DNA from: Clostridium sp. CAG:628
GTDB taxonomy: Bacteria > Bacillota_I > Bacilli_A > RF39 > UBA660
Assembly (NCBI GenBank): GCA_000438415.1
Contig: FR902241.1
Coordinates: 2,330-66,329, forward strand
Direction of reading: 5' to 3'
Length of the DNA stretch: 64,000 bases
Position numbers and translations under genes: made by a program. The notes under the pieces are model-generated. The model was not told the origin of the DNA and ran no database searches. It worked only from the letters and a program-made list of their open reading frames with translations. Shown one piece after another: positions 54,096 to 58,200 of this stretch. Numbering within the stretch: position 1 is the stretch's first letter; each line of letters opens with the position of its first letter.

Positions 54096-55478
54096 TTAAT
54101 ATTCACAATTTCCTGGTGTTCTAGGGTATGGTATAACATCCCTAATATTTTCTACACCAGTGATATATATAAGTAATCTTTCAAATCCCATTCCAAAACC
54201 TGAATGAACACATCCTCCAAATCTTCTAAGATTTAAATACCACTTCATGTCTTCTTCTTTCATACCTAGTTCAGTCATTCTTCTAACTAGTTTAGTATAG
54301 TCTTCTTCTCTTTGACTTCCACCCATTAATTCTCCTGCTCCAGGTACTTCTAGATCAACTGCTGCAACAGTTTTATTGTCATCATTTTGTTTCATATAGA
54401 ATGCTTTTATATCTTTAGGCCAATTAGTAATAAATACTGGTCCATTAAAGTATTCTGTTATATATTTTTCATGTTCTTTTGCAATATCTTCTCCGTATTC
54501 AGGAGTAAACTCCCATTTAACATTAGCCTGTTTTAAAATAGTTATTACTTCTTCATGTGTAATTCTAGTAAAATGACTATTTACTAATTTATTTAATTTT
54601 TCAATTAATCCTTTTTCAACAAATTTATCAAAGAAAGCCATTTCATCTTTAGCGTTTTCTAATACATATTTAACAACATATTTTAGCATACTCTCCATTA
54701 CATCCATATCATCATTTAAATCCATAAATGCCATTTCAGGTTCTATCATCCAAAATTCATTAGCATGTGTTTTAGTGTTCGAGTTTTCAGCTCTGAAAGT
54801 TGGTCCAAAAGTATAAACTTTCTTATATGCAAGTGCAAAAGTCTCAGCTTCAAGTTGTCCTGATACTGTAAGGTTAGCTTGCTTACCAAAGAAATCTTTA
54901 GAGTAGTCTACTTTACCAGTACTCGCTACTTTATTTAAGTCAAGTGTAGTTACTTGAAACATTTCTCCAGCTCCTTCACAGTCACTTGCTGTTATAAGTG
55001 GTGCATGAAAGTAAACAAACCCTCTTTCTTGAAAATATTTATGTATAGCAAAAGCAGCTATACTCCTTACCCTAAAAACAGCATTAAATAAGTTTGTTCT
55101 AGGTCTTAAATAAGCAATTTCTCTTAAAAACTCTCTAGTAGGTCTACCCTTACTTTGTAATGGATAGTCTGTATCTACATCTCCTAAAACAGTTATTCCA
55201 ATTAACTTAATTTCATACTCCTGACCAGCACCTTCACTAAGTATAACAGTACCTTTTACTTCTATACTACTTCCTACTTGTACTTTAGAAGCAACTTGAT
55301 AAATATCATCATCGCTAGTATAAACAACTTGTACTCCTTTAAAACTAGTTCCATCATTTAAATCAATAAAACCTAACGTTGACTGATCTCTATTACTCCT
55401 AACCCAACCATCAATTATAACTTCAGTATCTAATAATTCTTTATATTTTAAATTTAACTCTTTTACATCAATTTTCAC
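54096..55478 (-). CDS. asnS: asparagine--tRNA ligase
   Basis: 460 aa class IIb synthetase with N-terminal OB fold, motif 2 FRAENSNTKTHANEFWMIEPE and motif 3 GFGMGFERL. Confidence 0.85.
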   Translation of the reverse strand: MKIDVKELNLKYKELLDTEVIIDGWVRSNRDQSTLGFIDLNDGTSFKGVQVVYTSDDDIYQVASKVQVGSSIEVKGTVILSEGAGQEYEIKLIGITVLGDVDTDYPLQSKGRPTREFLREIAYLRPRTNLFNAVFRVRSIAAFAIHKYFQERGFVYFHAPLITASDCEGAGEMFQVTTLDLNKVASTGKVDYSKDFFGKQANLTVSGQLEAETFALAYKKVYTFGPTFRAENSNTKTHANEFWMIEPEMAFMDLNDDMDVMESMLKYVVKYVLENAKDEMAFFDKFVEKGLIEKLNKLVNSHFTRITHEEVITILKQANVKWEFTPEYGEDIAKEHEKYITEYFNGPVFITNWPKDIKAFYMKQNDDNKTVAAVDLEVPGAGELMGGSQREEDYTKLVRRMTELGMKEEDMKWYLNLRRFGGCVHSGFGMGFERLLIYITGVENIRDVIPYPRTPGNCEY

Positions 55479-56128
55479 AATTTTCTCTTCCTTTCTTGAT
55501 CTAACTCAATTATATCTCCTATAATTCTTCTTAAATACTTATATTCTCTTTCTTTCTCATAAATATCTGACTCAAAAGCCGAAGCAACGAGTGCATCTCT
55601 CATATATTTATAAGTGTTTTCATGTTTAAAGAAATTAACATCAAACTTAATATCATAACTATTTAAATAAGTTCTTAAAAATACTAAACAAGTTCTAGTA
55701 TTACCTTTTCTAAAAGGATGTACTTTCCATAAATCACTTATTAAGGAAGTTACAAAATCTTTCTGCATTTCAATATCTAAACTAAGTAAATCAGTATTTC
55801 TAAGTATTTCAAATATCTCATTTAATTGGTAATCAATTTCACTTGGTTTAGCATATTCTACAGATTCATAAGCAAGTACTCTTTCTTGTTTATATATTTC
55901 TATAGTCCTATATTTACCTGCAAAAGAATATACATCGCTAAATAAATATTTATGTAATTCTAAAAAATAATCTTTACTACTTTCAAAATACATATTTTTA
56001 AATATTTCATGTATTCTAGTAATAACTATATCACTCTCTGCTTGCTTTAATTTATTATTATCTTTAATATTTAACAAATTTTTAAGCACTCCTGTATTAC
56101 TGTCAATATATGGATCACTCTTCTCCAT
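55475..56128 (-). CDS. Fic-fold protein with degenerate active-site motif (HPFRKGNTRTCL), E. coli Fic/class I-like N-terminus
   Basis: The DPYIDSNTGVLKNLLNI N-terminus resembles E. coli-type Fic proteins, and the motif deviates from HxFx(D/E)GNGRxxR at three positions. Its stop overlaps the asnS start. Confidence 0.6.
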   Translation of the reverse strand: MEKSDPYIDSNTGVLKNLLNIKDNNKLKQAESDIVITRIHEIFKNMYFESSKDYFLELHKYLFSDVYSFAGKYRTIEIYKQERVLAYESVEYAKPSEIDYQLNEIFEILRNTDLLSLDIEMQKDFVTSLISDLWKVHPFRKGNTRTCLVFLRTYLNSYDIKFDVNFFKHENTYKYMRDALVASAFESDIYEKEREYKYLRRIIGDIIELDQERKRKL

Positions 56129-56306
56129 AGTACTCCTTTAATTTTTCTACAATTTCCTCTTCAGTAATTAATCCTTTTCTTTGTTCTTCTATAAGTTCCC
56201 TTAAAAAACAACTTCCAGAACATCCATCACATTTATTAATCTCTTCACTAACAATCCATTCTAAATCATTAAAATTGTTATTATTATCATTATTATCGTC
56301 TGGCAT
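56115..56306 (-). CDS. small acidic Cys-rich protein (CDGCSGSC) overlapping the start of the Fic-like gene; possible FicA/YhfG-like partner
   Basis: 63 aa from ATG 56306 (AAGGAAG RBS). Overlaps the fic-like gene by 14 nt. Confidence 0.4.
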   Translation of the reverse strand: MPDDNNDNNNNFNDLEWIVSEEINKCDGCSGSCFLRELIEEQRKGLITEEEIVEKLKEYYGEE

Positions 56307-56422
56307 ACTAGTCACTTCCTTTAATGATAATATTATACTACATTTTCATAAAAGAAAAAAGAGTTAATTTTCATAAGTTTTTAACGTATTTTTAAATAAT
56401 TTACAAAATAAAAAAAGAAACA

Positions 56423-57766: not shown

Positions 57767-57784
57767 TTTACATACCTCCTTCAT

Positions 57785-57880
57785 TTTTAAGACGCGCCAT
57801 TTAGGTAAGTATCACACTTTTGTTAACCTATTCTGTGCGGTTTACAAGGAAAGACTTCTTACAAACGAATTTATTGTACC
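57785..57880 (-). ncRNA. candidate L21 ribosomal-protein leader (autoregulatory 5' UTR)
   Basis: About 100-nt GC-enriched untranslated leader upstream of rplU with the stem GACGCGCC...GGCGCGTC in part. Firmicute rplU operons are known to carry an L21 leader. It was not folded in detail here. Confidence 0.25.
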
Positions 57881-57951
57881 ATAGATAACTAAGAAATGCA
57901 AGTAAAAAGCAATGATTAGGCCATTTTTAAATTAAAAATTCAAAAAATAAG

Positions 57952-58062
57952 TTTACTTTATAAGCAAAATATGTTATTATTAGTACATAAATTAATTAAC
58001 GCACGCAAGTATGCGCCGATATTTATTATCTAGCGTTGACGCGGGGTTAATTGATTTTTTTT
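57952..58062 (+). ncRNA. promoter (TTTACT-17-TATTAT) plus ~76-nt structured small RNA with terminator, copy 1
   Basis: -35 at 57952-57957 and -10 at 57975-57980. The transcript begins around 57987. Outer stem UUAAUUAAC...GUUAAUUGA, inner hairpin CGCA-AGUA-UGCG, then a U8 run ending near 58062. Confidence 0.4.
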
Positions 58063-58088
58063 ATTTTAAGAAAAATTCAATTTTATTA

Positions 58089-58200
58089 TTTACAAAAGAA
58101 ATAAAATATGGTACTATTAGTACATAAATTAATTAACGCACGCAAAACTTGCCCCGATATTTATATCTAGGGTTCAGACGCGGGGTTAATTAATTTTTTT
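58089..58200 (+). ncRNA. promoter (TTTACA-17-TACTAT) plus ~77-nt structured small RNA with terminator, copy 2; antisense to the 3' end of the gene at 58167-58736
   Basis: Same architecture as copy 1, with the inner hairpin changed to GCAA-AAC-UUGC (covariation). Outer stem UUAAUUAAC/GUUAAUUAA followed by a U7 run. Overlaps the last 34 nt of the convergent ORF. Confidence 0.4.

Follow-up and report, generated by a model that had tools for sequence, protein, structure and literature searches.

Tandem Structured RNA Genes Convergent with an LPD3-Like Gene in Gut Bacilli: A Possible Antisense-Controlled Module

Introduction

In Bacilli, antisense RNAs that overlap the 3' end of a toxin mRNA silence it through RNase III, as described for RatA/txpA and SR4/bsrG (PMC3531473, PMC3834814). 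A locus of related layout is described here from Clostridium sp. CAG:628 (assembly GCA_000438415.1). It lies in a 64,000-nucleotide (nt) stretch of contig FR902241.1 (positions 2,330 to 66,329), called the window below, to which all coordinates refer unless another locus is named. Two tandem repeats, each composed of a promoter, a small RNA (sRNA) and a terminator, converge on the 3' end of an open reading frame (ORF) of 189 amino acids (aa) related to LPD3 (PF18798), a domain of phage and conjugative-element polyvalent proteins. Comparative sequence evidence supports the two repeats as real, independently promoted, structured RNA genes of ~75 nt.

As in txpA/RatA, bsrG/SR4 and yonT/as-yonT of Bacillus (PMC3531473, PMC3834814, PMC6562991), the RNA gene is convergent with the protein gene and their 3' ends overlap. 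Both arrangements also have a strong promoter for each partner, no protein antitoxin, a low-GC Firmicute host and varied chromosomal sites. The Bacillus toxins, however, are hydrophobic peptides of less than 60 aa, whereas the protein here is a predicted soluble, LPD3-like one of 189 aa. The RNA is also much shorter than its Bacillus counterparts, being essentially one terminator-hairpin, and it occurs in tandem arrays of one to four separately promoted copies, sometimes with a copy upstream of the ORF as well. The overlap that can be guaranteed is only 15-34 nt.

Two other kinds of system invite comparison. In the par locus of the Enterococcus plasmid pAD1 (Fst, RNA I/RNA II), the transcripts of toxin and antitoxin converge on one bidirectional intrinsic terminator, which makes their terminator stem-loops complementary to each other, and the locus described here likewise has convergent partners that share a bidirectional terminator. 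Fst is a membrane peptide of 33 aa, and RNA II also pairs through 5' direct repeats with the translation initiation region, whereas no such 5' complementarity was found in the present module. Type III toxin-antitoxin (TA) systems (ToxIN, CptIN, TenpIN), which are common in gut Firmicutes, combine a protein of ~170-190 aa with a tandem structured small RNA and have no protein antitoxin, a pairing that recurs here. Their repeats of 34-45 nt lie upstream of the toxin gene on the same strand, are transcribed as a unit and are then excised by the toxin. The units described here, in contrast, measure 103-160 bp, lie downstream on the opposite strand and each carry a promoter and a terminator of their own. 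Sequence and fold searches matched no solved ToxN or CptN structure, and PADLOC returned nothing.

The layout resembles that of antisense-controlled toxin modules and differs from it in the kind of protein, in the self-contained tandem RNA units and in the minimal, terminator-sized RNA. The protein shares with the LPD3 of polyvalent proteins a profile homology reaching E values of 1e-60 and a predicted fold; unlike LPD3 in those proteins, it is stand-alone, chromosomal and coupled to an antisense RNA.

RNA Genes in the Window

Positions 57940-58215 hold two direct repeats with a period of 137 nt, and the aligned units are 88% identical (Table 1). The initial annotation had read them as tandem promoter-sRNA-terminator units with promoters TTTACT-17-TATTAT and TTTACA-17-TACTAT, an outer stem enclosing the transcript and a terminal run of seven or eight uridines, and it is upheld in each of these respects. 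Both promoters, which follow the layout TTTAC(T/A)-17-TGnTAnnAT, carry a TGn extended −10 element in addition. The ~75 nt of each unit fold into a single long irregular hairpin with a minimum free energy of −23.9 kcal/mol in copy 1 and −22.5 kcal/mol in copy 2, and z-scores against dinucleotide shuffles are −3.9 and −4.0. In both copies a 12-bp outer stem closes the entire transcript, and the final runs are U8 and U7.

The DNA is ~26% GC. Across the 64-kb window the conserved 15-mers TTAATTAACGCACGC and GACGCGGGGTTAATT are found at these two sites only. The copies differ by a compensatory change in one of the inner helices, P3, which reads GCGC/GCGU versus GCCC/GGGU. A small ORF within the RNA was considered and rejected: copy 1 has an ATG-started frame of 39 codons, and copy 2 has no ATG there.

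Structure and Covariation of the RNA

The copies from the closer loci, designated class 1, share one architecture. The same four-helix hairpin forms in 26 of 26 class-1 copies, each folded singly. P1 (9-14 bp) closes the molecule and is followed by the U-run. An internal loop separates it from P2 (3-5 bp), and a second internal loop, whose 5' side (5-7 nt, with U as its last base in every copy) varies more than any other segment, leads to P3 (4 bp), a 1-nt bulge and P4, the distal hairpin. In a hand-built class-1 alignment, canonical pairs fill 96.8% of the cells and changes occur on both sides at 24 of 29 pairs. The covariation score is 0.61, as against at most 0.11 when the partners are slid by 1-3 columns, and none of 500 shuffles reached the observed value.

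This alignment was made helix by helix from the individual folds, with N padding, and leans toward structure; the many distinct pair types at each position cannot stem from that leaning. MAFFT shifted two rows (L063 and L070), the effect of which is to make the counts conservative. RNAalifold run on the plain MAFFT alignment recovered P3 alone because the outer stems are misaligned there. Further copies at the loci of the genome scan described below include a second sequence type with compensatory changes, CGC:GCG becoming CAC:GUG and GCCC:GGGU becoming GUCU:GGAC, and also an outer-stem variant, UUGAUUGGC/GUCAAUCAG. In class 2, the RNA of the more distant loci described below, overlap with coding sequence keeps the outer stem almost unchanged, which leaves covariation uninformative for that class.

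One structural proposal of the initial annotation did not survive. It had placed in each copy a covarying internal hairpin (CGCA-AGUA-UGCG versus GCAA-AAC-UUGC), which proves to be of low stability (−0.5 to −3.7 kcal/mol) and which some members of the family are unable to form. It uses the 5' strands of P2 and P3 and is therefore mutually exclusive with the conserved helices. The same hairpin was also rejected as an alternative conformer, for which the trend is weak and inconsistent (mean z −1.1).

The initial annotation could not assign the elements to a known RNA family, and Rfam 15 gives no match to them either. The whole window at the gathering score yields three tRNAs only, a 701-nt region at E<=10 yields L21_leader and one chance match only, and 18 related loci at E<=1 yield no match on the sRNAs. 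ARAGORN finds no tRNA or tmRNA at the sRNA site, and a search of the literature found no description of an RNA-LPD3 module. As judged from these comparisons and from the linkage described next, the RNA is a new family with a new, strictly conserved partner gene.

Linkage to the LPD3-Like Gene

The pattern AACGCACGC-N20-50-GACGCGGGGTT was scanned over 185,579 species genomes. Some 40 matches, in GC-rich genomes, are due to chance, and five are true, falling in four loci of three low-GC Bacilli metagenome-assembled genomes (MAGs). At all four loci a homologue of the ORF, 187-207 aa long, adjoins the RNA, and reading the sequence revealed further RNA copies outside the exact pattern. Their neighbourhoods differ, namely rnhC/ftsZ, rnhC/mutS, a surface-protein region, and an IS4-like transposase with rpsD. 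Many contigs from human-gut metagenomes encode the exact ORF protein in an unchanged gene order, together with both RNA copies, in which only a handful of substitutions occur. A protein search gave 106 homologues, all of ~180-200 aa. Nine diverse ones at 40-50% identity, whose contexts are unrelated (tsaD, an NrtR-like gene, tuf, RNase J, ftsH and others), were inspected, and all nine have one to four promoter-RNA-terminator units that converge on the 3' end of the ORF.

A metagenome scan with the protein alignment produced 80 loci, 36 close and 44 distant. In 35 of the 36 close loci the RNA profile detects one to four copies, which without exception lie on the strand opposite the ORF and abut its stop; in the remaining one, L104, a diverged copy was located by eye. 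Among the distant loci (35-42% protein identity, 33-53% GC), 43 of 44 have a class-2 unit in the same place. This unit combines a TTGACA-17-TAnnnT promoter with an RNA of ~65 nt, AAGARAUGGGUUUUYAC...GCUGCUCGUUUCU7, in the same long-hairpin layout. The linkage was seen in 19 other loci besides these 80, whereas the class-1 RNA profile has no match elsewhere in 536 kb made up of the rest of the window and unrelated loci.

The promoters are likewise conserved. In 50 distinct class-1 upstream regions the −35/−10 pair is present without exception, the spacing is 17 nt in 49 and TGn is found in 48. This comparative evidence supports the earlier proposal that the units are independently transcribed sRNA genes. 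Across loci no conserved third gene, such as one for a protein antitoxin, was found, the neighbours being unrelated housekeeping genes; the only recurrent extra "ORFs" in class-2 loci are antisense frames over the LPD3 gene. Against plasmid and phage records, the class-2 protein has no plasmid match and one match to an unannotated faecal phage contig.

Several loci vary the basic layout. An extra sRNA copy lies upstream of the ORF in L033 (6672-6747), L047 (7675-7749), L062 (2338-2413), L066 (1839-1909) and L077 (1300-1375); since its strand is that of the downstream copies, its transcription would run away from the ORF. A cut-off ORF start (MYYDIRMSLSQLYAN*) further upstream in L062 suggests that the whole module was duplicated in tandem and that one of the two has since decayed. 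L029 and L033 both belong to MAG CAKORV01, which has at least two complete modules at different sites in one genome; these differ in the protein and in the RNA array, three A-type copies in one versus B+A (with a further A upstream) in the other.

In L104 (1-2037; metagenome contig Ga0256407_10017515) the LPD3-like domain belongs to a larger ORF, which is open over the full 2-kb locus and encodes at least 679 aa. Within this ORF, directly after the motif KKYLYDILDVK, a class-1-like sRNA is found on the antisense strand. It has a TTGACA-17-TATATT (TGn) promoter and folds into a hairpin of −29.3 kcal/mol that is followed by a U9 run, and the ORF translates the complement of the RNA as ...KPKKKLVSLPLVASNSNKSSAI.... 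In L135 (979-1911; near-identical in L136-L140, L144 and L149) an N-terminal Cro/C1-type helix-turn-helix (HTH) domain (HTH_26/HTH_3, E 1e-11) is fused to the LPD3-like domain in a protein of 310 aa, and the fusion keeps the convergent class-2 sRNA at its 3' end. L119 has, a few hundred bases from its class-2 module, a match resembling the c-di-GMP-I-GGC riboswitch (2315-2410, + strand; 44.9 bits, gathering score 59).

The Partner Protein

The window protein itself has no Pfam match at E<=1, and its family is recognized through its relatives. Homologues at 42-48% identity match Pfam LPD3 (PF18798) with 26.6-29.8 bits over aa ~45-170 (gathering score 27), and distant homologues match it with 18-23 bits. 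An exhaustive profile search returned 839 matches, many of them to proteins of 2000-4100 aa that align with profile positions ~15-184 at E values of 1e-60 to 1e-27, including proteins that also carry ART-PolyVal, LPD38, LPD1 or LPD3. The AlphaFold2 model of the window protein (mean predicted local distance difference test, pLDDT, 83; predicted TM-score, pTM, 0.77) is a soluble alpha/beta fold. When this model was compared with BFVD by Foldseek, the top matches were phage proteins named LPD3/PolyVal (E 1e-7 to 1e-3; query TM-score, TMq, up to 0.64), and the same search against solved structures in the PDB gave no match. PADLOC, PHROGs, NCBIfam and PDB sequence/profile searches returned no meaningful match to the protein. 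By homology and predicted fold, the ORF is a stand-alone LPD3-like domain homologous to internal modules of phage polyvalent proteins. Neither a function for LPD3 nor an RNA partner is given in the paper in which the domain was defined (PMC5512222, Iyer et al. 2017).

The protein alignment contains invariant polar residues at R36, E86, S90, H131, K136, E154, R164, N165, K171 and D175, a number that is suggestive of an enzyme. The C-terminus had been taken initially to follow the pattern of RelE/ParE toxins, and neither Pfam, PDB sequence/profile searches nor Foldseek lends this any support. A RelE/ParE toxin of the BECR fold was rejected: there is no match to a family model, the homologues match LPD3 only, NCBIfam gives nothing, no similarity to solved RelE/ParE/BECR structures was detected, and no co-transcribed protein antitoxin gene is adjacent.

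The Convergent 3' Overlap

Positions 58167-58200 of copy 2 are antisense to the last 34 nt of the ORF, which comprise 11 codons and the stop, in agreement with the initial annotation. The stop codon, TAG, is the complement of 58167-58169 and comes from the P4/P3 junction, within copy 2. The conserved end of the window ORF, ...KKYLYDILDIKK, lies opposite the sRNA U-run, and in every subfamily the U-run is opposite the codons of the conserved C-terminal ...YLYD(I/L)LxIKK. Beyond this motif the proteins have non-conserved tails that are the antisense reading of the RNA: IN*, LINPASEP*, INQVSLKEYFQTT* and KETSSPLE*. The A-run in the window is 1 nt shorter than in relatives ending in KKIN*, which shifts the frame so that the ORF runs 7 codons further into the RNA (LINPASEP*). 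Because the U-run is always opposite the IKK codons and the tails are merely antisense RNA, the 3' overlap itself is the conserved feature.

At its other end the gene has a promoter of its own (Table 1), and the ORFs of related loci are preceded by TTGACAAACAAA...TATGCTAAT. A generic scan of the ORF strand made a single terminator-like call, at 58017-57998, where the complement of the initially proposed internal hairpin of copy 1 (GGCGCAUACUUGCGUGCGUU followed by AAUUAAUUUA) could form the end point for read-through ORF mRNA.

Models for the Module

The architecture is consistent with a portable module of two parts, in which a strongly promoted LPD3-like gene would stand tail-to-tail with an array of one to four sRNA genes. 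Each sRNA gene would be expressed from its own extended −10 promoter, and its four-helix hairpin would double as intrinsic terminator. The 3' part of the last RNA has its predicted complement in the last codons and the 3' end of the LPD3 mRNA, and a read-through LPD3 mRNA would be complementary to the whole array. Abundant antisense RNA would then pair with the 3' end of the LPD3 mRNA, exposing it to double-strand-specific cleavage and 3' decay and keeping the LPD3 protein low, and tandem copies would raise the RNA dose. Were RNA synthesis to stop, the LPD3 protein would accumulate and act. We infer the transcription of the sRNAs, their pairing with the mRNA in vivo, the destabilisation of that mRNA and the toxicity of the protein.

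That the region is a type-I-like module of this kind, with a tandem cis-antisense RNA silencing a potentially toxic LPD3 protein, is the reading preferred here, tentatively and at a little short of an even chance. It is favoured by the conserved convergent overlap, the lack of a protein partner, the varied chromosomal sites and the relationship of the protein to an effector domain. One trait of type I systems, a separately promoted antisense RNA gene that overlaps the toxin gene, is seen at the sequence level in the promoter, the terminator and the 34-nt overlap, and these are conserved across the family.

Several observations weigh against it. Only the proximal copy overlaps the ORF, and the overlap that is guaranteed, 34 nt in the window, falls to ~15 nt in the relatives ending in KKIN*. 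The extra copy upstream of the ORF in several loci cannot be cis-antisense to that ORF and hints at action in trans. Even in distal copies the four-helix architecture is kept by compensatory changes, and a conserved U lies 5' of P3; this is a stronger structural constraint than an ordinary antisense RNA or terminator calls for. The toxins of classical type I systems are hydrophobic peptides shorter than 60 aa, a description that a 189-aa predicted soluble alpha/beta domain does not fit, and the homologues with an N-terminal XRE-type HTH (L135) fit a regulator as well as a toxin. Finally, the sRNA shows no excess complementarity over shuffles to the 5' untranslated region and start of its own ORF, where the ribosome binds. 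The cis-antisense arrangement first proposed is supported by the tie between the units and the convergent gene, and is not supported by any excess pairing with the ribosome-binding region.

The main rival, which can accommodate the structural constraint, is a type-III-like system, in which the structured RNA binds the LPD3-like protein and neutralises or otherwise controls it, the tandem, separately promoted copies supply a stoichiometric excess of RNA, and the overlap is a shared bidirectional terminator. Multi-copy RNA arrays are a hallmark of type III antitoxins. Compensatory change maintains the four helices and specific unpaired nucleotides in the distal copies as well as in the proximal ones, cis-antisense action is impossible for the extra copies upstream of the ORF, and the RNA sequence classes switch together with the protein subfamilies (class 1 versus class 2). 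The arrangement is nevertheless unlike that of all known type III systems, whose repeats are upstream, on the same strand and processed by the toxin, and the protein matches ToxN, CptN and AbiQ neither in sequence nor in fold. Direct binding also gives no reason why a convergent 3' overlap should be conserved among relatives at 35-42% protein identity, and on balance a type-III-like system is doubtful. A bolder version, in which the four-helix RNA would be a dedicated direct-binding partner of the LPD3 fold, as antitoxin or regulator, and the two would found a new class of RNA-protein TA or defence system with separately promoted antisense-strand RNA arrays, is rather unlikely.

The partners may also form a ribonucleoprotein outside TA biology, with the RNA serving an RNA-acting LPD3 enzyme as substrate, cofactor, decoy or guide, or with the protein as a dedicated sRNA chaperone or processing factor. 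Genetic linkage is strict and no third component was found, the invariant polar residues look enzyme-like, the HTH-fused variant suggests a regulatory rather than a lethal role in some lineages, and L104 has its RNA gene within, and antisense to, a large ORF that contains LPD3. We consider such a ribonucleoprotein quite improbable, given that the protein has no recognisable RNA-binding or RNA-modifying domain and that varied insertion sites between housekeeping genes, with several modules per genome (L029 and L033 in one MAG), are more typical of selfish or defence modules.

Trans-acting sRNAs that regulate other genes, perhaps by way of the variable loop separating P2 from P3, and whose link to the ORF is purely physical, would account for the copies that are not antisense to it and for the 5-7-nt segment 5' of P3 being the most variable between copies. 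This segment, however, is short and lies inside an internal loop, and an unrelated regulon would not require ORF linkage and 3' overlap to be kept across deep divergence, which makes this reading very improbable.

It is hardly credible that the units are long bidirectional terminators or insulators, or palindromes of the repetitive extragenic palindromic (REP) or miniature inverted-repeat transposable element (MITE) kind that the initial annotation had set against its own proposal, with promoter hexamers fortuitous in AT-rich DNA: each unit is indeed a hairpin with a U-run, −10-like hexamers are common at 26% GC and a generic promoter scan matches fewer sites than in shuffles, but the −35/−10 pair is constant in sequence, in its exactly 17-nt spacing and TGn (50, 49 and 48 of 50) and in its distance from P1, relatives of higher GC content (38-53%) keep TTGACA-17-TAnnnT, apart from the two window copies every copy lies beside a homologue of the 189-aa ORF with none at other terminators in the window or the 536 kb, and it is hard to see what purpose up to four terminators in tandem would serve.

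Other Features of the Window

The units are divergent from the rplU-prp-rpmA operon, as initially described. Upstream of rplU, an L21 leader (RF00559) at 57780-57851 (− strand) scores 34.8 bits against a gathering score of 36 and is missed by a default Rfam scan because it falls just below that score. At 55475-56315 (− strand) lies a gene of the Fic/DOC family, of 217 aa (Pfam Fic, E 5e-11), whose start is overlapped by an acidic ORF of 66 aa (56115-56315). Sister strains have this Fic frame in split or shortened form (59+178 aa, 74+96 aa, 121 aa, 182 aa), which suggests ongoing pseudogenisation or phase-like variation. Coding repeats occur at 41553-42380, 42810-42990 and 63464-64000, with tandem units of 156, 91 and 100 nt, and a ~450-nt segment recurs at 78-89% identity in two genes 21.9 kb apart. 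They probably encode paralogous repetitive, perhaps surface, proteins.

Table 1. Positions of the RNA units, their structural elements and the partner gene in the window
Feature	Position	Strand	Remarks
sRNA copy 1 unit	57952-58062	+	promoter, RNA and U-run
Copy 1 promoter	57952-57980	+	−35 TTTACT 57952-57957; 17-nt spacer; TG 57972-57973; −10 TATTAT 57975-57980
sRNA copy 1	57986-58062	+	~77 nt; start placed from the −10 position
Copy 1 P1	57989-58000 with 58046-58057	+	
Copy 1 P2	58004-58006 with 58041-58043	+	
Copy 1 variable loop	58007-58012	+	
Copy 1 P3	58013-58016 with 58033-58036	+	
Copy 1 P4	58018-58021 with 58027-58030	+	
Copy 1 U-run	58055-58062	+	U8
sRNA copy 2 unit	58089-58200	+	promoter, RNA and U-run
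Copy 2 promoter	58089-58117	+	−35 TTTACA 58089-58094; 17-nt spacer; TG 58109-58110; −10 TACTAT 58112-58117
sRNA copy 2	58123-58200	+	~78 nt
Copy 2 P1	58126-58137 with 58185-58196	+	
Copy 2 P2	58141-58143 with 58180-58182	+	
Copy 2 variable loop	58144-58150	+	
Copy 2 P3	58151-58154 with 58170-58173	+	
Copy 2 P4	58156-58159 with 58164-58167	+	
Copy 2 U-run	58194-58200	+	U7
LPD3-like ORF	58167-58736	−	189 aa, stand-alone; putative effector/toxin, from homology
LPD3-like ORF promoter	58761-58789	−	TTGAAA-17-TATAAT, 11/12 matches; followed by Shine-Dalgarno GAAGGGUGG

Significance

The sRNAs make up a well-supported RNA family outside Rfam, with strong covariation and conserved promoters at more than 90 loci. 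Their linkage to LPD3, a domain of phage and plasmid polyvalent effector proteins, joins that domain to a specific, structurally conserved sRNA and offers a first experimental handle on it. If the module is a TA or defence system, antisense-RNA control of the type I kind would extend to a large, enzymatic-looking protein, and tandem self-contained promoter-RNA-terminator units would represent a new mode of RNA dosing. If instead the RNA binds the protein directly, the LPD3 of polyvalent proteins would be an RNA-recognising or RNA-targeting effector, and the copy in L104 would mean that phage-type proteins come under the same control. The paralogous modules of CAKORV01 (L029 and L033) raise the question of cross-talk or specificity between them. 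Genome-reduced gut Bacilli and other Firmicutes of the gut, in which such systems are barely charted, commonly carry the module.

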